Below, in pieces: positions 5,820 through 39,744 of a stretch of 64,000 bases of DNA. A program made the translations under genes and the position numbers. The notes under the pieces were generated by a model. It was given only the letters and a program-made list of their open reading frames with translations, searched no databases and had not been told where the DNA came from. How positions within the stretch are numbered: the first letter of the stretch is position 1; the number at the start of each line of letters is the position of its first letter. The DNA is from Myxococcales bacterium (GTDB lineage Bacteria > Myxococcota_A > UBA9042): positions 32,001 through 96,000 of the forward strand of contig JBBISH010000001.1 in assembly GCA_037441385.1 (NCBI GenBank). The letters are read 5' to 3'.

Positions 5820-6755
5820 ATGAACTCTCGCCTCAAGCTTTTTGCTGGCACTAGCCACCCCCAGCTCGCCCGCGACATCTGCAAGCACCTGGACCTGCCG
5901 CTGTCGAAAAGCGAGACGATTCGCTTTGCCAACGAGAACTTGATGGTCAAGATCTCGGAGAACGTGCGCGAGTGCGACGTGTTCTACGTGCAGACCTCGG
6001 CGCCGCCCGTCAACGAGGCGCTGGTCGAGACGATGATCGCCATCGACGCGCTCAAGGGCGCCTCGGCGGCGCGGGTGACGGTGGTGCTGCCGTATCTGCC
6101 GTACTCCCGCTCGGACAAGAAGGACCAGCCGCGCATCTCGATCACCGCGCGCCTGATCGCCGACCTGCTGCAGACCGCCGGCGCCGACCGCGTGCTCACC
6201 ATGGACCTGCACTCGCCGCAGATCCAAGGCTTTTTCCGCATCCCGGTCGACCAATTGATGGGCGCGCCGGTGCTGTGCGACCACATGCAGACCTGGGATC
6301 TCAGCGACTGCGTGCTGGTGGCGGGCGACGTGGGCGAGGCCAAGGATATCGGCCGGTTCGCGAACATCCTGCATCTTCCGGTGGCCGTGGTCGACAAGCG
6401 CCGCTACGGCAACGACGACCGCGCCGTAGCGACCAACCTCATCGGCGAAGTGTCGGGCAAGCACGCCATCATCGTCGACGACGAGATCTCGACCGGCGGC
6501 ACCATCATCGAGGCCACCAACTTCCTCATGTCGCGCGGGGCCTTGTCGGTGCGCGTCGTCGCCACCCACGGTGTCTTGTGCGGGCCCGCCATCGAGCGCA
6601 TCAACGGTTCGTCGATCAGCCAAGTCATCGTCACCGACACCATCCCGCTGCGCGACAAGAAAAGCGACCGCATCACCACGCTCAGCGTCGCGCCGTTGTT
6701 TGCCAAAGCGATCCGCCGCATCCACGACGGCGACTCGATCAGCGACCTTTTCTAA
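5820..6755 (+). CDS. prs: Ribose-phosphate pyrophosphokinase
   Basis: PYLPYSRSDKK, DLHSPQIQGFF, VDDEISTGGT; ATG after GGAG at 5820. Confidence 0.97.
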   Translation: MNSRLKLFAGTSHPQLARDICKHLDLPLSKSETIRFANENLMVKISENVRECDVFYVQTSAPPVNEALVETMIAIDALKGASAARVTVVLPYLPYSRSDKKDQPRISITARLIADLLQTAGADRVLTMDLHSPQIQGFFRIPVDQLMGAPVLCDHMQTWDLSDCVLVAGDVGEAKDIGRFANILHLPVAVVDKRRYGNDDRAVATNLIGEVSGKHAIIVDDEISTGGTIIEATNFLMSRGALSVRVVATHGVLCGPAIERINGSSISQVIVTDTIPLRDKKSDRITTLSVAPLFAKAIRRIHDGDSISDLF

Positions 6756-6757
6756 GT

Positions 6758-6876
6758 CGCGTTCTCAGTCCCAGTATCAAGCGCACCTGATACCGGTCTC
6801 ACGGGTGGCAACCTGTTGAGATTCGGTAGCTTTGTCTTGGCACGCTTCTGGCATGACTCCCGGGAGACGTCCGCCG
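6758..6876 (+). promoter_or_regulatory. Repeat R1: putative sigma54 promoter module (UAS palindrome 6788-6801, IHF-like site 6809-6821, -24/-12 at 6837-6854)
   Basis: TTGGCACGCTTCTGGCAT is GG-N10-GC; homologous to 11416-11541 with an identical 24-nt core and identical spacing. Confidence 0.7.
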
Positions 6877-6901
6877 GGGCGCGGCGCAGGTGCATGGGAT
6901 G

Positions 6902-6949
6902 TTGACGACCCGCTGTAGGACACGTAACCTGTGGACACGGATCCCGTGT
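6902..6949 (+). promoter_or_regulatory. Putative sigma70 promoter and operator of TA module 1
   Basis: TTGACG-17 nt-TAACCT (6902-6930), then inverted repeat ACACGG-atc-CCGTGT (6935-6949). Confidence 0.6.
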
Positions 6950-6967
6950 GATTCGCCGCAGGCCCCC

Positions 6968-7198
6968 ATGAACCTGACCCTCAGCGCCGACGACGAGGTG
7001 GTCCGCCGCGCCCGTCTGGCCGCCAGCCGCCAAGGTCGCAGCCTGAACGACTTGATGCGCGAGCACTTGGAGCGCCTGGCTGGCATGAACACAGGTGCCG
7101 AGATCGCTAGCGAGTTCGAACAGTTGGCTATCCTTGGTCAAGGCCACAGCGGCGAGCGCTTTCGGCGGGCCGACGCCTACGACGGGCGGCGCTCGTGA
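6968..7198 (+). CDS. Ribbon-helix-helix antitoxin (DUF6364/CopG-like)
   Basis: MNLTLSADDEVVRRARLAA..GRSLNDLMREHL RHH pattern; GTGA overlap with the PIN gene. Confidence 0.85.
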   Translation: MNLTLSADDEVVRRARLAASRQGRSLNDLMREHLERLAGMNTGAEIASEFEQLAILGQGHSGERFRRADAYDGRRS

Positions 7199-7633
7199 AG
7201 CCGGTGTTCCTGGACACCAATGTGCTGGTCTACGCAGTAGATTTGGCGGCGGGTCCGCGCGGCGGGTCCGCGCGGCGAGCGGGCGCGACAGCTGGTGACG
7301 GCAGCGCTGCGCGATCGTTCGGCAGTGCTGTCGACCCAGGTCCTGCAGGAGTTCTATGTGGTTGCTACCCGCAAGCTGGGCATCGAGCCGGCGGTGGCGC
7401 GGCGGCAGGTCGAGCTGCTGAGCACGCTGGAGGTGGTGCCGGTGACCGTGGCGCTGATCCTGGAGGCGATCGACCTGCAGCGGCTGCGGCAGGTGTCGTT
7501 TGGGGACGCGCTGGTGCTGCGATCGGCGGCGGCCGCGGGGTGCGCGATGGTGTGGAGCGAGGACTTGCAGGCGGGCGCGGTGTTCGACGGGGTGCGGGTG
7601 GAGAATCCGCTGCAGAGCCTAAGTGCGGGTTGA
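7195..7633 (+). pseudogene. vapC: PIN-domain VapC toxin frameshifted by a 13-bp tandem duplication
   Basis: FLDTNVLVYA in one frame; STQVLQEFY, SFGDAL, WSEDL, VENP in the +1 frame; deleting one GCGGCGGGTCCGC copy gives a 141-aa ORF. Confidence 0.9.
7246..7277 (+). repeat. 13-bp exact tandem duplication (GCGGCGGGTCCGC x2 plus GCGGCG)
   Basis: Read directly at 7246-7258 and 7259-7271. Confidence 0.95.
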
Positions 7634-8539
7634 AGGCGTGCCTACCGCAACGGCCACGACACGCAGCCACTCGCCCAGCACTGATACCAATTCCGTCCGA
7701 ATCGGATCGAAAACTCTGGCAATTCTTCGGGCCCGGACCGGGGTCCCCGCCTGATTCTCGCCAGTTGCAGAACGGGTCAGAAAGGCCGTACAGGTGCGAA
7801 TCAGGTGGGGTGCGTAGGACAAGTCGCGCTCGTCGCTCACGACCACGGTCTGCGGGGAGTAGTCGGGATTCAGGGAGTCGAGGCGGACCTCCAGGCCGGG
7901 AGACTGCAGGCTCATGCCGCCCACCTTTCTGCACAGCCATTGCCCCCCATCGTCGGCGTCAACTGGGTTGCGCAACAGGACGATTTTGCCCAGCAACGGG
8001 GGGGCTACAGGTTGGCGGAACAGGCACCAAGCACCGTTGGCGATGCGCGGTTCCCTAGACGGGCCGCCCATTTGTGTCAAGAACTGCCCGTCGCTCGCCG
8101 ACTGGCCCGGTGGTGGCGCCGCCCAGGCCGAGACCACGGGCGCGTCACTCGCTCCGGGCGAAGCGGTACATGTGCGCAAGTCGAAAATAGGCAGGCTCCG
8201 AGCCGGTTTGCGGCGGCCAATAGCTGGTGTGGCCTGCCAGCCCGCGGCGGACAGTTCCGACAACGGGTCAGCCAAGGCAGGATCTCCTGGTACCTGACCC
8301 TTATTGATCAATAAATCGGTCACTTGTACGCCAAAGGCCGACGCCAGTCCGAACAGGGTTCGGGTAGTGAGGGCGCGGCAACCATGTTCGAAGTCCTGAT
8401 ATTGCTTGATGTCGACGCCGCACTTGTCGGCCGCTTGCGCTTGGGTCCAGGCACGCTGTACTCGCACCCTTGCGAGATTACCGCCGAGCTCCTGGAGCCA
8501 GAGGCGATAGGCGAGGTCAAGTTGGCTGCGGCGCGTCAT
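7619..8539 (-). CDS. XRE helix-turn-helix + S24 (LexA/CI-like) domain regulator with in-frame repeat insertion near the C-terminus
   Basis: LARVRVQRAWTQAQAADKCGV...FEHG HTH; GGPSREPRIANG...LDSLNPDYSP S24-like segment. Confidence 0.75.
   Translation of the reverse strand: MTRRSQLDLAYRLWLQELGGNLARVRVQRAWTQAQAADKCGVDIKQYQDFEHGCRALTTRTLFGLASAFGVQVTDLLINKGQVPGDPALADPLSELSAAGWQATPAIGRRKPARSLPIFDLRTCTASPGASDAPVVSAWAAPPPGQSASDGQFLTQMGGPSREPRIANGAWCLFRQPVAPPLLGKIVLLRNPVDADDGGQWLCRKVGGMSLQSPGLEVRLDSLNPDYSPQTVVVSDERDLSYAPHLIRTCTAFLTRSATGENQAGTPVRARRIARVFDPIRTELVSVLGEWLRVVAVAVGTPSTRT
7685..7816. mobile_element. 132-bp MITE-like repeat, element B copy 1
   Basis: About 88% identical by hand alignment, with no gaps, to the reverse complement of 39519-39650; TAC...GTA ends, internal palindromes. 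Confidence 0.8.
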
Positions 8540-8669
8540 AGGGCGCCACGAGACACCCGCACGATCGTGATGAAAACCGATGAAATCATACACACATTGA
8601 CAACAATTAATTCGTTGGGATTCTCGGATTCCCGAACGCTCGAACGTCGGCGCTGAAGCGAGGCGACCC

Positions 8670-10751
8670 ATGACCCTCTTCGAACGGAAACTCACTAACC
8701 TGGCTGCATTTTGGGGCCTCCTCCTTGGTCTAGCCATGGCCGTGTCTTGCACGTCGACCGGCGGTTCTGGGGGTGGTGGCTACGTGATCCCGCCCGGTGG
8801 CGGCAATACTTGCGTGCCCCAGTGTGACGGCAAGGAATGTGGCGACAACGGCTGCGGCGGGGTGTGCGGGGCGTGCCCTGCTGCCGCACCAGTTTGCCAG
8901 CAAGGAACCTGCAAGGCTGCTTGTGTGCCTCAGTGTACCGGCAAGGAGTGCGGTGACGACGGGTGCGGCGGGGTGTGCGGGGCTTGCGCTTGGGACAAGC
9001 CGGTCTGCACCGCGGGGCAGTGCACGGCGCCCGCGCCGGCCTCGCAGTGTGGCAACGGCACGTGCGAAACTGGCGAAACGCCAACGAATTGTGCCGCAGA
9101 CTGTCAGGCCCCGCCCACGGCGCACTTTTGCGACACGAATTGCGGGGGCGGCGGCAGCAACGCCTGCTATTGCGACGACCAATGTGCGCAGTTTGGCGAT
9201 TGCTGCAATGCTGCAGGCGACGGCAAGGGCGGCAAGACCTGTGCGGGTTCAACCTGCGCGCTGTGCAACGGTGGAGCTAGCGGCGGACCCAAGTGCGGCA
9301 ATGGTCAGTGCGAAGCCGGCGAGACGGCGGCAAACTGCGCTGCAGACTGCAAGGGGGGCTGTGCGCCCAGTTGTCCGGCGGGGACGTGTGGCGACGATGG
9401 TTGTGGCGGCCAGTGTGTGTGCACCGGAACGAAGGTGTGCCAAGCGGGCATTTGTGTCACGCCTGGGTCTACGGCACCGACGTTGGTCGTCAAGCCGATG
9501 GGATTGCTTGATATTGGTGGCGCAAAGGTGGTCCCTGGGTGGCTTGCGCACCTCTACGGCAAGAACTTGCAGGGGATTGGCGACTTCAGGCTACTTGAAG
9601 CGAGCGTGACGAACTCGGACTCGGTCAGCCACAACTACACGGTCGAGGTGGAGATCAAGGGCTACTCCGAGATTGCGTTGACTTCGCTCAAGATCCCGGC
9701 CAAGCAGACCGCGACGGCGTCTGACTTCCCGCTGACCTGGAAGCCTGCCTGGAAGGCGCTGTCGGCGCCGCTGTCCACCCAGATTCAGGTCCGGGTCGTG
9801 GAGGGGGCCAGCACGCTGGCGAGCGACGCGGTTGGTGCGTCGTTGTATCCGGTGAACTATGTGAAACTCGGTGATACGGACTTGCTCAGCGGCGTCACGG
9901 TCCATGGGCAGGAAACGGCAGTAACCTTGATTACGCCGGGCGACAAGGACGTGCTAGGCGTCTTGACGGCGGCAAAGGCATATAGCGCCTTTGAATCCAT
10001 GATCGCGTATCAGTACAAGGGGACGAAGTTCGGAGGCTCCTTGCCTGCACTGAAATTCACCCTGGGGCCCGGACAGGAGCAGAAATGGTCAACCTACTAC
10101 GAGGCCGGTGACCTGATCGACGCGGATGTGTCGGTTACGTGTTCACTTTGCACCGACTACAACGCTGGATACGGCGTATATGACGAGGATGGGAACTGGG
10201 TGTTCAAGTTCGACACGCTAGGCAAAGGGATACAGGCTAAGTCCGCGCCGGTATCGGGCTGGTACTACCACCACGCGTGGAACCCGGCGGGCAACGGATC
10301 GAATCGAAGCTATACCGTGAAGCGGGGCATGGCCATCAACGAGGGCGCCGCCGACCAAATAGGCGCGATCTTCAAGGCCGTTCAGGCCTATGGGGTCGGA
10401 TACGTAACCGTAAAGGGCTCATTCTTCAGCGGAGCGCAATACATCAAGCTGCCGGCAGAATCCCTCATGTCTTCTGGGGCAAACTGTATCGACGGTACAC
10501 TCCTTTTCGCGTCTGCCCTTGAAGCGATGGGCATGCAGGCTTTTCTGGAGTTCCCGCCAGGGCACGCGTTCGTAGCCGTTCGTTGTTGGCCGAACGCAAA
10601 CTGTATCGTGCCGATCGAGACCACGTTGGTAGGGGAGAACGGTTCCGCGAATGACGCAATCAACGCCGCGATCAGTAAAATGCCAAATGTTCTCAAGGAA
10701 GTCGACGTCCAGGCGCAACGCGAGGCAGGCTTCACCCCGATTCCCCAGTAG
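8670..10751 (+). CDS. Cys-rich lipoprotein with somatomedin-B-like motif and C-terminal transglutaminase-like domain
   Basis: Lipobox AVSC; CxPQCxGKECGDxGCGGxCG repeats; CYCDDQCAQFGDCC; NCIDGTLLFASAL...PGHAFVAV...ETT. Confidence 0.75.
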   Translation: MTLFERKLTNLAAFWGLLLGLAMAVSCTSTGGSGGGGYVIPPGGGNTCVPQCDGKECGDNGCGGVCGACPAAAPVCQQGTCKAACVPQCTGKECGDDGCGGVCGACAWDKPVCTAGQCTAPAPASQCGNGTCETGETPTNCAADCQAPPTAHFCDTNCGGGGSNACYCDDQCAQFGDCCNAAGDGKGGKTCAGSTCALCNGGASGGPKCGNGQCEAGETAANCAADCKGGCAPSCPAGTCGDDGCGGQCVCTGTKVCQAGICVTPGSTAPTLVVKPMGLLDIGGAKVVPGWLAHLYGKNLQGIGDFRLLEASVTNSDSVSHNYTVEVEIKGYSEIALTSLKIPAKQTATASDFPLTWKPAWKALSAPLSTQIQVRVVEGASTLASDAVGASLYPVNYVKLGDTDLLSGVTVHGQETAVTLITPGDKDVLGVLTAAKAYSAFESMIAYQYKGTKFGGSLPALKFTLGPGQEQKWSTYYEAGDLIDADVSVTCSLCTDYNAGYGVYDEDGNWVFKFDTLGKGIQAKSAPVSGWYYHHAWNPAGNGSNRSYTVKRGMAINEGAADQIGAIFKAVQAYGVGYVTVKGSFFSGAQYIKLPAESLMSSGANCIDGTLLFASALEAMGMQAFLEFPPGHAFVAVRCWPNANCIVPIETTLVGENGSANDAINAAISKMPNVLKEVDVQAQREAGFTPIPQ

Positions 10752-10791
10752 GCCCACGCCCACGCGCTGAGACACAAAAGGAGCCCTGCCC

Positions 10792-11403
10792 ATGCGTTTC
10801 CTCGTCGCCCTTGCTGCTGTGTTCCTCCTTGCCTGCACCACCACCGGTCCCTCCGGCTACAACCCCAGCGCCACCGGTTGCGGGCCCCTCAACTGCGCCG
10901 GATGCTGCGCGGGCGGCGTATGCACGTCGGGCAACTCCGCGATGGGTTGCGGCTTGGGCGGCGGCATCTGCGCCATCTGCGACGCGACCGATATCTGCAA
11001 TTCCTCGGGCCAATGCGTCCTTGACCCCAGCGCAAAATGGATCGTGCGGCCCGTCTCCGCCGTGATCGAAAGCAACGACAACGGCAAGAACTGGGATGGG
11101 GACGGCTCCCCGCCCGACGTCATCGTTACCACGGTCTGCCCAGACGGCAGCGTGGGCACGTCGGAAAAGGTCGAGAGCTACAATCCTTCGTTTAGCCTTG
11201 GGTCTTGTGTGGCCACGGCGGGCGATCTGATCGCCAAGGGCATCACGTTCTCCGTCAAAGACTCGGACCTCACGGTCGACGACAGCATCACCGGCAACGT
11301 GTCCATGGCCATCAGCACGGCAGACCTGGCCGCCGGAGTCCGGGTGGGCAGCATGTCCAGCGGTGGCTGCAAGTCGATCCAGTACACGCTCACACGGAAG
11401 TAG
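10792..11403 (+). CDS. Lipoprotein with Cys-rich motif and C2-like beta domain
   Basis: Lipobox LLAC; CAGCC...CGLGGGICAIC; WDGDGSPPDV and VKDSDLTVDD acidic loops; AAGGAG RBS. Confidence 0.7.
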   Translation: MRFLVALAAVFLLACTTTGPSGYNPSATGCGPLNCAGCCAGGVCTSGNSAMGCGLGGGICAICDATDICNSSGQCVLDPSAKWIVRPVSAVIESNDNGKNWDGDGSPPDVIVTTVCPDGSVGTSEKVESYNPSFSLGSCVATAGDLIAKGITFSVKDSDLTVDDSITGNVSMAISTADLAAGVRVGSMSSGGCKSIQYTLTRK

Positions 11404-11415
11404 CGGGCGGCGCCT

Positions 11416-11541
11416 CTGATACCCGTCTCGGTTGCAGTATCAGGCCGCGCCGGATTCCGGTCTCACGGGTCTGAATCCGTTGATATTCCATTCTTTTGTC
11501 TTGGCACGCTTCTGGCATCTGTTCCCAGGCGACGCCCGCCG
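11416..11541 (+). promoter_or_regulatory. Repeat R2: second copy of the sigma54 module (CTGATAC-N14-GTATCAG at 11416-11443, IHF-like 11473-11485, -24/-12 at 11501-11518)
   Basis: Direct homolog of 6758-6876; reverse strand TATCAAcggaTTc resembles IHF consensus WATCAAnnnnTTR. Confidence 0.7.
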
Positions 11542-11578
11542 CTAAACTGTCCGCCCAGACTTGGGGGCGAGGTGCAGC

Positions 11579-12151
11579 ATGGACGGCGAGCGGCGACTGA
11601 CCTGGGAGGACGTCGTGCAGTTGCCCGAAAAAGAAATGCCCGAGCTGATCGACGGTCGGCCCTACCTGCGCGCGGCGCCGCGGAGCCGCCACAGCTACAT
11701 CCAAGGTGAAGTGCACCTCGCCCTGCGGCACGGCGACGCCAACCTTGCTGGCAGTTGGTGGATACTCCCCGAGCCGGACGTCCGCTTGACCCCGCACCGC
11801 ATCGTCCGCCCCGACCTGGCCGGCTGGCGCAAAGAGCGCATGCCCGAGCTCACCGACGACTGGCCGATTGACCTGCGGCCGGACTGGATCTGCGAGATCG
11901 CTTCGCCGACCAATGCTCACTACGACCGCGGCCTCAAGTCGCAGGTGTATCTGCAGGCCGGGGTGCCGTGGTACTGGCTGGCGGACCCGCAGGAGCGGAC
12001 GCTGGAAGTGTTCCAGAACCATGGCGAACACTGGCTGTACCACGGTTCGTTCAGCGACGGCGACGTGCAGGCGCTGCCGCCCTTTGACTGCGCAGTGCTG
12101 ACCATGAGCGAGCTGTTCGGGCCGCTGCCCAAGGGTTGGCCAGGAACGTAA
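11579..12151 (+). CDS. Uma2/DUF820 family PD-(D/E)XK-like endonuclease
   Basis: ELIDG, RPDLAGW, PDWICEIASP, K..Y..AGVPWYWLADP. Confidence 0.92.
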   Translation: MDGERRLTWEDVVQLPEKEMPELIDGRPYLRAAPRSRHSYIQGEVHLALRHGDANLAGSWWILPEPDVRLTPHRIVRPDLAGWRKERMPELTDDWPIDLRPDWICEIASPTNAHYDRGLKSQVYLQAGVPWYWLADPQERTLEVFQNHGEHWLYHGSFSDGDVQALPPFDCAVLTMSELFGPLPKGWPGT

Positions 12152-12205
12152 TGTAATAACAGAATTTTTGTTCTTGGTGGCCCGGTGCGCTCGGAGTGCG
12201 TGACA

Positions 12206-12234
12206 TTGACATGCATATGCATGTGGGGTACTCT
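12206..12234 (+). promoter_or_regulatory. Sigma70 promoter with palindromic operator of TA module 2
   Basis: TTGACA-17 nt-TACTCT, overlapped by the perfect 16-bp palindrome ACATGCATATGCATGT (12209-12224). Confidence 0.75.
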
Positions 12235-12250
12235 GGCCAGCGGAGGAACC

Positions 12251-12523
12251 ATGCGCACGACCATCGAACTCGAAGACGACTACCGCGGCCGGCTCTTGGA
12301 GCTGGCGGCGCGGCGGGGCAAGAAGGGCTTCTCGGACCTGATCAACGAGGCGGTCGCGCGCTACCTCACTTCGGAAGACGCGCAGGCGGACAAGCAGAGC
12401 AAGGCCGCGAAGCTGCAAGGGTTCTTGACTGCTAGCGAGGCCGACGACCTGGCCGCGCGCTGTCACTCTGCCCGGACTCTCTGGCGCGCCAGTGACGCCG
12501 ACCACCTTGGTGAACGGGGGTAG
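12251..12523 (+). CDS. vapB: RHH antitoxin (VapB-like)
   Basis: MRTTIELEDD...LAARRGKKGFSDLINEAV; GGAGG RBS; directly upstream of a PIN gene. Confidence 0.85.
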   Translation: MRTTIELEDDYRGRLLELAARRGKKGFSDLINEAVARYLTSEDAQADKQSKAAKLQGFLTASEADDLAARCHSARTLWRASDADHLGERG

Positions 12524-12527
12524 ACGG

Positions 12528-12926
12528 ATGTTCCTGTTTGATTCCGACGTGCTCATCGACTTCTTGCGTGGCGCCGAACCGGCTGCTGGGCGCGTGGCCT
12601 TCGAGCTGGAGCACGCGGCTGTCGCGGTTTCGGCCGTTACCGCCTTCGAGCTCACGGCGGGCGCCCTGTCGGTGCGCCAACAGGCGGCGGTGGAGACTCT
12701 CTTGGCGGCGACTCCGGTTGTGCCGGTGAGCGTCGAGGTGGCCTTGCTTGCCGGCAAGATCTTTCGCGACTTGAAAGCGTCGGGCCAAGAGATCGGCATG
12801 GCCGACTGCCTGATCGGTGCCACGTGCATCGTTCAGCGGACCTTGCTGGTGACGCGCAATCGCAAGCAGTTCGAGCGCATCCCTGGCCTGAAGCTGACCA
12901 TCATGGGGGCTGAGCGCGCCAAGTAG
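12528..12926 (+). CDS. vapC: PIN-domain toxin VapC
   Basis: FDSDVLIDFLRG, SAVTAFEL, ADCLIGAT, TRNRKQFERIPGL. Confidence 0.93.
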   Translation: MFLFDSDVLIDFLRGAEPAAGRVAFELEHAAVAVSAVTAFELTAGALSVRQQAAVETLLAATPVVPVSVEVALLAGKIFRDLKASGQEIGMADCLIGATCIVQRTLLVTRNRKQFERIPGLKLTIMGAERAK

Positions 12927-12959
12927 ACGGACTTTTGGGGTTTTGTGGTTAGGCGAACT

Positions 12960-15851
<2,892 letters not shown>

Positions 15852-39408: not shown

Positions 39409-39744
39409 AACACCAATCACAACTCTCCGAGGTTCAGAGCAACGAGACCACTCGCTGACGAAAACTCGCTGAGGCTCATACGAACCCCGTCTGATTCACG
39501 CCTGTACGGTTCCTCTGATACGAACCCCATCTGATTCACGCCTGAACGGCTTCTCTGACCCGGTCTGCAACCGGCGAGAATCAGGCGGGGACCCCGGTCC
39601 GGGCCCGAAGAATTGCCGAAGTTTTCGAGCCGATTTGGACGGAAACCGTATCAGTGGGTCGCAAGCGGGCGCCCCACTACCCAGCACAGCCGCGACCCGC
39701 CGCGACGTTTGCCCCCCAAGGACTGGGTTTCTGATCGGTGCTCT
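39407..39744. mobile_element. MITE-like element A with imperfect terminal inverted repeats, containing nested element B
   Basis: Left end AGAACACCAATCACAA, right end TTCTGATCGGTGCTCT; begins at the CTAG of the upstream stop codon. Confidence 0.65.
39479..39650. mobile_element. Element B copy 2 (39519-39650) with a 40-bp tandem duplication of one end (39479-39518)
   Basis: Inverted homolog of 7685-7816; TACGAACCCC.TCTGATTCACGCCTG repeated at a 40-bp period. Confidence 0.85.

Follow-up and report, generated by a model that had tools for sequence, protein, structure and literature searches.

A putative sigma-54-type promoter cassette precedes two toxin-antitoxin operons in a mosaic islet between prs and uvrA of a Myxococcota genome

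In the usual description, type II toxin-antitoxin (TA) operons repress their own transcription and become active when the antitoxin is lost. The genes comM and radC are found in DNA-uptake regulons of other bacteria. Here, we describe an accessory island of a Myxococcota genome in which two VapBC-like TA operons each stand behind a copy of a promoter-like repeat (R1 and R2) of a type that also precedes comM and radC. The island lies within a stretch of 64,000 nucleotides (nt), hereafter the window, which comprises positions 32001-96000 of contig C1 of the genome under study (G000; 6.6 Mb, 221 contigs). Coordinates below are those of the window. Two relatives from the same genus, G005 and G007, are used for comparison. 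We find it probable that the island is a mosaic islet in which R1 and R2 serve as regulon promoters.

The two operons and their promoters each resemble a described kind of system, and each departs from it. Like VapBC modules, the operons consist of a small RHH gene followed by a PIN gene, the two overlapping by or spaced by 4 nt. They differ from such modules in that both stand behind an apparent sigma-54 promoter, which would replace or be added to the usual autorepressed one, in that one operon opens with a Uma2 gene, and in that one toxin gene (PIN1) is a pseudogene; the NCBIfam cut-offs for VapC are also missed. The promoters resemble those of sigma-54 regulons of the NtrC, PspF and RtcR types: they have a -24 GG and a -12 GC, together with tandem palindromes on one helix face (spaced by about 22 and 35 nt), and the genome encodes both rpoN (Sigma54_DBD, PF04552; 29582-30130, minus strand, about 17 kb from the island) and 18 proteins with a Sigma54_activat domain (PF00158). 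They differ from these regulons in that the palindromes are nearer the promoter than usual, and in that the target set (comM, radC, an HRDC protein, Uma2 and three PIN TA operons) matches none that we found in the literature, as far as the sources were accessible.

R1 and R2 are two copies of one element with the layout of an activator-dependent promoter. R1 (6762-6854, plus strand) comprises upstream hexamers, a palindrome, GATACCGGTCTC, at 6789-6800 and a -24/-12 element, TGGCACGCTTCTGGCA, at 6838-6853. R2 (11418-11518, plus strand) has the palindromes GATACCCGTCTC (11418-11429) and GATTCCGGTCTC (11453-11464), followed by the same -24/-12 element at 11502-11517. The two repeats are 81% identical over 73 nt (6782-6854 and 11446-11518) and can be aligned over about 110 nt. 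The exact 23-mer that they share occurs twice in the window, where 0.00 copies are expected, and twice in the whole 6.6-Mb genome. The core element agrees with 11 of the 12 positions of the consensus TGGCACG-N4-TTGCA (with W as the last position); it is oriented toward the downstream operon in each case, and its -24 GG and -12 GC are ten bases apart. In R1 the palindrome ends 37 nt ahead of TGGCAC. The stretches between palindrome and core, CAACCTGTTGAGA (6801-6837) and GAATCCGTTGATA (11465-11501), are each by eye one mismatch away from the reverse complement of the IHF consensus.

Comparison with G007, which also carries two R copies, points to the promoter cassette having been homogenised or copied within each genome. 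All four copies keep the sequence GAT(A/T)CCGGT(A/C)TCAC, which in G007 occurs as a perfect palindrome, GATACCGGTATC. The palindrome box (86-100% pairwise identity) and the -24/-12 box (85-100%) are the best conserved parts. The 33-column spacer that leads from the palindrome to the -24 element is 67% identical between the two copies of G000 and 85% identical between those of G007, but only 33% and 30% identical between positional orthologues; overall, its identity between the two genomes is 27-39%. Downstream of the -12 element, orthologues are the closer pairs (60-61%, versus 35-45% within a genome). It is because the spacer is alike within a genome, and not between orthologues, that we favor homogenisation or copying. 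Recombination between R copies is supported only in this sense of apparent within-genome exchange. The preliminary description of this locus had proposed, more broadly, that the island was possibly built by recombination between them. We found no relative with variation bounded by the R copies, and the similarity between G000 and G007 breaks elsewhere, at the end of PIN1 (7612).

The pairing of palindromes with a -24/-12 element recurs across the genome and is absent from controls. The strict sigma-54 consensus is found 14 times in G000, compared with once for the reversed control. Sequences that match GATACCGGTATC with at most two mismatches number 117 genome-wide, and 13 of these have a sigma-54 site (at least 10 of 12 positions) within 120 nt, as against none of the 118 matches to the reversed control. 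The nearest palindrome ends 36-38 nt before TGGCAC, with additional copies at distances of 54-60 and 71-72 nt. Conversely, the genome has 562 sigma-54-like sites, ten of which have between three and six GAGAC, GTCTC, GATAC or GTATC words at -110 to -25; one site has two such words, and the rest have none or one. With control words, no site among the 562 reaches three. The GATACCGGTATC and GGTCTCAC repeats are candidate activator-binding sequences.

G000 has ten such promoters, R1 and R2 among them. The others include that of another Uma2 gene, which lies immediately outside the window on its upstream side, and those of an HRDC/HTH_40 gene that is followed by PhdYefM and PIN genes, radC, comM (Mg_chelatase/ChlI), and two lipoprotein or secreted-protein genes without a family. 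The genome has ten Uma2 paralogues, and an R-type promoter stands before two of them, one being the island gene. Two divergent Uma2 genes at C1:30221-31555 share an intergenic region with two perfect copies of GATACCGGTATC, and a sigma-54 -24/-12 element is present only before the rightward gene. At C12:4200 and C218:3149, two promoters of the set have near-identical -24/-12 elements and are followed by similar sequence, which may represent a small RNA or a leader.

This type of promoter appears to be an old, chromosomal one, since it is conserved upstream of comM across the family and in part of the class. In 29 of 30 family genomes, comM has a sigma-54 site (at least 10 of 12 positions) 24-61 nt ahead of its start, and most of these upstream stretches have clusters of GAGAC/GTCTC(AC) or GATACC (judged by eye, uncounted). 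Beyond the family, comM has such a site in six of ten other families of the class, several of which show other repeated upstream words by eye. In its strict form, GATACCGGTMTC-N34-40-TGGCAC, the pattern is restricted to four of 107 class genomes: G000 (three matches), G007 (five), G005 (one) and G088 (one); the reversed controls gave none. The G088 match has no plausible downstream gene, and we treat it as chance. In G007 and G005, the same promoter type is found before comM, HRDC(-PIN) and Uma2 genes. On this evidence, R1 and R2 would be copies of a chromosomal promoter that were set before TA and Uma2 cassettes.

The words upstream of comM differ by lineage (GAGAC/GTCTC, GATACC, GTGCCAC, GGGAC and others, by eye), as if they were co-evolving with an activator.

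We tentatively suggest, as a possibility somewhat short of an even chance, that these promoters belong to an undescribed sigma-54/activator regulon that is widespread in this Myxococcota class. It would be centred on comM, together with radC and the HRDC protein, a set of genes that DNA uptake induces in other bacteria, and in this lineage it would have repeatedly recruited PIN TA operons and Uma2 nucleases. In the partly accessible literature that we searched, we found no description of a sigma-54 regulon of comM, radC and TA or Uma2 genes; comM is a noisy search term, which also retrieves words such as “common” and “community”.

The island is a real accessory insert at a variable site. It occupies the whole interval from the prs stop to the uvrA stop (6756-12959), and the 3' ends of prs (5820-6755, plus strand) and uvrA (12960-15851, minus strand), both called from open reading frames (ORFs) and Pfam, converge on it. 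Presence and absence were assessed by a DNA search of 40 relatives, followed by pairwise BLAST. G005 has an empty site: its prs match stops at the position aligned to 6754, and its uvrA match starts 14 nt on, at the position aligned to 12960. G007 carries the island, with prs-R1-RHH-PIN 90% identical to G000 up to position 7612 and uvrA 89% identical; the stretch 8769-12906 is only 73% identical by BLAST. G007 also has a gene for a 1040-amino-acid (aa) SNF2/SWIM helicase (locus L016, 3796-6918) between PIN2 (vapC) and uvrA, which is absent from G000. The empty site and the extra gene show that the prs-uvrA interval is variable, in line with the insertion hotspot suggested previously. What varies at the site is the whole island, present or absent, plus one gene at its right end. 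The SNF2/SWIM gene can be regarded as further variable cargo of the site.

Among the matches listed, the other relatives have prs and uvrA on separate contigs, and the 1.5 kb around prs contains neither an island protein nor an R-like promoter in the nine other relatives whose prs loci were analysed (L006-L014). When the empty site of G005 was aligned with both island ends, no target-site duplication was found at the junctions, and there is no tRNA there either. Contigs from another assembly of the probable source sample reproduce 6600-7709 and 7763-12950; the middle of a 138-nt repeat, described below, is not bridged.

The gene content agrees exactly, by ORF list and domain scans, with the order given in the preliminary description: R1, an antitoxin gene and a frameshifted vapC, a convergent XRE-S24 gene, a divergent Cys-rich lipoprotein gene, a second lipoprotein gene, R2, Uma2 and an intact vapB-vapC pair. 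That description had seen no integrase or transposase, and Pfam, NCBIfam and phage-family scans likewise found no such domain in any island ORF, nor any phage structural gene. It had also noted that the middle genes are richer in A/T-ending codons, which the GC content at third codon positions (GC3) bears out: 0.71 for the XRE gene and 0.73 for the 693-aa lipoprotein gene, versus 0.82-0.88 for the TA and Uma2 genes and 0.89-0.92 for argG, prs and uvrA. An Rfam scan of 6000-13500 (E ≤1) matched neither R nor the 138-nt repeat to any family, and returned a lone chance viral match (22.6 bits, against a gathering score of 80). A scan of 6500-13200 for sigma-70 promoters and terminators found no promoter and one terminator-like site, which is below expectation.

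Modules 1 and 3, the operons behind R1 and R2, are by their sequences ordinary type II TA/nuclease cassettes with a predicted toxin-antitoxin function. Module 1 opens with an RHH-type antitoxin gene (6968-7198, plus strand) that has sub-threshold FitA-like RHH and DUF6364 matches and overlaps the start codon of the PIN gene by 4 nt. The PIN (VapC-like) toxin gene, PIN1 (7195-7633, plus strand), is a pseudogene spread over two frames, with PF01850 matching its 3' part (E 5.4e-9). Its frameshift, already remarked on before this analysis, is a 13-nt tandem duplication (7251-7263 and 7264-7276) that appears as a 13-column gap against the intact, 136-aa orthologue of G007. No intact reading frame of the module 1 toxin was found in G000, where this toxin is, judging from its coding sequence, dead.

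Module 3 begins with a gene of the Uma2 family, which has a restriction-endonuclease fold (11579-12151, plus strand; PF05685, 93.2 bits against a cut-off of 27). It is the first gene after R2, and is followed by an RHH (CopG-type) antitoxin gene (12251-12523, plus strand; PF01402 RHH_1, 24.2 bits against 20.5), the stop codon of which lies 4 nt ahead of an intact PIN (VapC-like) toxin gene, PIN2 (12528-12926, plus strand; PF01850, E 1.3e-15, 58.5 bits against 23.6). PIN2 falls below the NCBIfam VapC equivalog cut-offs (NF047959, 55.7 against 80 bits; NF047863, 60.7 against 140), and by eye it shows Asp, Glu and Asp where they would be expected. In G007 the Uma2 orthologue is split over two frames (L016, 7777-8428) and PIN1 is intact, the reverse of the situation in G000.

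Module 2, which lies between the two operons, has a different character. None of the ten regulon promoters stands before any of its three genes, the first of which encodes a degenerate repressor. This XRE gene (7619-8539, minus strand) is convergent with PIN1 and has a CI/LexA-like architecture, with an HTH_3 domain followed by an S24-like domain; its product matches the phage repressor family phrog_4 across both the HTH and the C-terminal parts. Of its earlier identification as XRE-S24, the HTH part stands (HTH_3, E 4.1e-8), and the S24 part is weak in G000, where Peptidase_S24 scores 12.0 bits against a cut-off of 23.3. The G007 orthologue, 45% identical to the G000 protein, passes that cut-off with 24.7 bits. 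Putative Ser and Lys sites, located by eye, read G-Q-S-M and F-K-R-I in G007, at the candidate positions of the S24 Ser/Lys dyad. The G000 counterparts read G-P-S-R and C-R-K-V, so that the Ser aligns and the Lys site has R-K in place of K-R. The protein shares its domain layout and phrog_4 match with CI/LexA-like repressors, and its orthologue keeps the G-Q-S-M and F-K-R-I motifs, but the G000 copy differs from them in its sub-threshold S24 part, its changed motifs and an insert of 46 repeat-derived codons.

That insert, which the preliminary description had missed, is a dispersed repeat of 138 nt (about 7682-7819). It interrupts the XRE gene toward its 3' end, in frame and with no stop codon, and is absent from the G007 orthologue. 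The repeat has 337 blastn matches in G000, 156 of which combine a length of 125 nt or more with an identity of 85% or more; another copy lies at 39519-39656. Both insert junctions are present in the other assembly of the probable source sample, and in metagenome contigs of that sample the words of the repeat reach a depth of ~7900, versus ~16 elsewhere. Its predicted RNA fold has multiple stems and is unexceptional in stability (z-score -0.52, for one sequence).

The remaining two genes of module 2 encode putative lipoproteins with predicted extracytoplasmic functions. The larger (8670-10751, plus strand), divergent from the XRE gene, encodes a Cys-rich protein of 693 aa with a lipoprotein-type signal and Cys-rich repeats, including some encoded by 111-nt units. 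A structural model of its C-terminal 424 residues (predicted local distance difference test score, pLDDT, 93.6) contains two sandwiches, one Ig-like (Z ~9.6) and one GOLD/PPC-like (Z 13.5), followed by a last domain with a Cys-His-Glu triad. The triad residues, C606, H632 and E650 (C337, H363 and E381 in the 424-aa part), are invariant in 25 aligned sequences, in the motif N-C-I-D-G ... H ... E-T. The last domain matches TglA (9crn_A; Z 9.1, 145 residues aligned, root-mean-square deviation (rmsd) 4.0) and 3kd4_B (Z 8.7), values that are middling and were obtained with a 424-residue multidomain model. The earlier label of transglutaminase-like lipoprotein holds for the Cys-His-Glu motif and not for Pfam, where no family is above threshold: the sub-threshold matches are Transglut_core (E 0.0067, in one of 25 family members), DUF553 (0.014) and Peptidase_C71 (0.066). 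There is also a partial match to NCBIfam ProA (NF058533; E 1.1e-17, 62.9 bits against a cut-off of 1500) over profile positions 158-313 of 1903, and we found no source for this family in the part of the literature that was accessible. A Foldseek search of PDB with the 424-aa model was dominated by beta-sandwich matches and uninformative on the catalytic domain, and a profile search against PDB sequences gave nothing under E 0.3. Relatives of the 424-aa part number 27 at E ≤1e-3 among 5.8 billion proteins, mostly from metagenome-assembled genomes of Myxococcota. In the order and context of Cys, His and Glu and, at middling Z, in its fold matches, the last domain resembles transglutaminase-like (papain-fold) cysteine peptidases (Streptococcus pyogenes TglA, 9crn; BDI_1141, 3kd4; Pei, Peptidase_C71). 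It differs from them in that the protein is below every family threshold, and in its fusion to a lipoprotein signal, Cys-rich repeats, and Ig-like and GOLD/PPC-like sandwiches.

The smaller gene (10792-11403, plus strand) encodes a lipoprotein of 203 aa that is Cys-rich in its N-terminal part and has a C2-fold domain at residues 78-203 or thereabouts. Its model, built from an alignment of only six sequences, has a pLDDT of ~85 over residues 65-203. The best 50 fold matches are all C2 domains, led by 3jzy_A (Z 10.9, 115 residues, rmsd 2.9), so the previous designation as C2-like finds agreement at fold level. The loops carry conserved Asp-rich motifs. No Pfam family, C2 included, matches at E ≤0.01, and the family had six members in the protein search. 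With the eukaryotic Ca2+- and lipid-binding C2 beta-sandwich, the protein shares its predicted fold and Asp-rich loops; it differs in being a bacterial lipoprotein with a Cys-rich N-terminus and without a C2 match in Pfam. From these models, the 203-aa protein is probably Ca2+- or membrane-binding.

The genes of the island do not travel together. We searched with island proteins (tblastn) over 53 genome loci that have relatives of the 693-aa protein, and the G007 contig alone holds the 203-aa, Uma2, RHH and PIN genes. At the other 52 loci no other island gene lies alongside, save one distant Uma2 gene 3 kb off. Decay is reciprocal: PIN1 and the XRE-S24 gene have degenerated in G000, and Uma2 is broken in G007. 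Since genes are decaying in both genomes, they behave as dispensable cassettes. The preliminary description had taken the island for one undescribed system. Its genes occur together only in G000 and its congener G007, and several are broken or degenerate; because the partnership was found at none of the other genome and metagenome loci searched, a single coherent system is not supported.

Several observations weigh against a mosaic islet with R1 and R2 as regulon promoters. The -12 element of R reads TGGCA instead of TTGCA, and the bare pattern is not enriched in the genome (three matches, versus nine for the reversed control). The palindromes, centred about -69, are unusually near the promoter. 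For two of the ten promoters (C12:4200 and C218:3149), no gene downstream is convincing, and at 30 comM loci no AAA+ activator gene was found within 1.5 kb. A search for RNA runs that carry this DNA listed none. We infer sigma-54 dependence and co-regulation from sequence alone, and the peptidase and C2 functions from a motif and predicted folds at middling Z. The island order kept in G000 and G007 says little either way, as the two congeners are too close. At the 26 metagenome loci (of 80) that encode near-full-length relatives of the 203-aa protein, where no other island protein was found nearby, many contigs are too short to exclude neighbors. Some of these points would suit R being an operator with a sigma-70 promoter, controlled by a repressor (such as the XRE-S24 protein or the RHH antitoxins), with its likeness to sigma-54 promoters incidental. 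Palindromes near a promoter are typical of operators, type II TA operons are as a rule autorepressed by their antitoxins, and the -12 element of R is off consensus. Yet the two antitoxins are unrelated in sequence while the repeats are alike, and loci that have no TA genes show the same palindromes at the same constant distance (36-38 nt) from consensus -24/-12 elements. Moreover, G005 has the promoter type without having the island and its XRE gene, and no sigma-70-like promoter was found in 6500-13200. We consider control of this kind quite unlikely.

The block-like presence or absence of the island raises the question of whether it is a decayed integrated mobile element (a prophage or an integrative and conjugative element), with R1 and R2 as att-like direct repeats. 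The match of the XRE-S24 protein to phrog_4 over both domains would fit such an origin, as would the TA modules and the lower GC3 of the middle genes, which are typical of mobile DNA. However, neither integrase, transposase nor phage structural genes were found, and the junctions have neither a target-site duplication nor a tRNA. R2 is internal to the island, which means that the two R copies do not mark its ends, and the R architecture is also present at eight other loci before chromosomal genes such as comM, where it is conserved across the family. A mobile element of this type is thus unlikely. Another view takes the entire interval from R1 to vapC as one undescribed stress or defence system, in which the regulator and the secreted pair act with both RNase toxins. 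The gene order is identical in G000 and G007, Uma2 matches the PADLOC candidate PDC-S03, and the C-terminal domain of the 693-aa protein is shared with the NCBIfam “anti-phage protein ProA” (E 1.1e-17). Each of these has a counterpoint. The shared order is a matter of inheritance, since the two genomes come from one genus and their flanks are about 90% identical, and the partnership is kept at none of the 52 other genome loci and none of the 26 metagenome loci. The ProA match spans only 156 of the 1903 profile positions at 62.9 bits, against 1500. Between them, the two genomes have three different island genes in a broken or degenerate state. As for the suggestion of a defence locus, PADLOC models found no known multi-gene defence system, and gave only the single-gene candidate PDC-S03 for Uma2, plus generic HTH matches. 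We regard a unified system as very improbable.

Our preferred reading remains a mosaic islet, in which three independent modules would have settled where the 3' ends of prs and uvrA converge, in a gap that is permissive to insertion. Modules 1 and 3 would each be transcribed from a copy of the same R cassette, in which an enhancer-binding protein would have two or three palindromic GATACC/GGTCTC sites, followed by a sigma-54 -24/-12 element. This putative protein, bound to the tandem palindromes, would activate the sigma-54 holoenzyme at both R1 and R2. The RHH-PIN and Uma2-RHH-PIN operons would as a result be co-induced with comM, radC and the HRDC-Phd-PIN operon. Module 2, with its lower GC3, would lie outside the regulon. 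Its XRE-S24 protein may be, or may once have been, a CI/LexA-like repressor of the divergent lipoprotein pair, which would comprise an extracytoplasmic cysteine peptidase and a Ca2+- or membrane-binding partner or neighbor. As R-type promoters are common to the toxin operons and to DNA-processing genes, the toxin operons are probably switched on by a sigma-54 activator, a form of control that probably goes beyond the usual antitoxin autorepression. An external signal acting on the RNase toxins, as envisaged in the preliminary description, would then find support in another form, in that R1 and R2 resemble activator-dependent sigma-54 promoters.

The island's TA modules, its Uma2 gene and its CI-like repressor belong, or nearly belong, to known and ordinary kinds, and it is the regulatory wiring that is new, to a moderate degree. 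If the comM-centred regulon tentatively suggested above exists, a dedicated signal acting through its activator (e.g., incoming or damaged DNA) would induce RNase toxins and a nuclease, which would then not depend on antitoxin decay only. Three PIN-type operons and two Uma2 genes share their promoter type with comM and radC, which points to positive control, and this shared promoter type offers a handle on when such toxins are made. The regulon would also define a conserved upstream motif for an activator in an uncultured branch of Myxococcota, and the island would illustrate how accessory cassettes can be plugged into an existing regulon by promoter copying. Both secreted proteins come from small uncharacterised families, and they may matter for the envelope or predation biology of myxobacteria.

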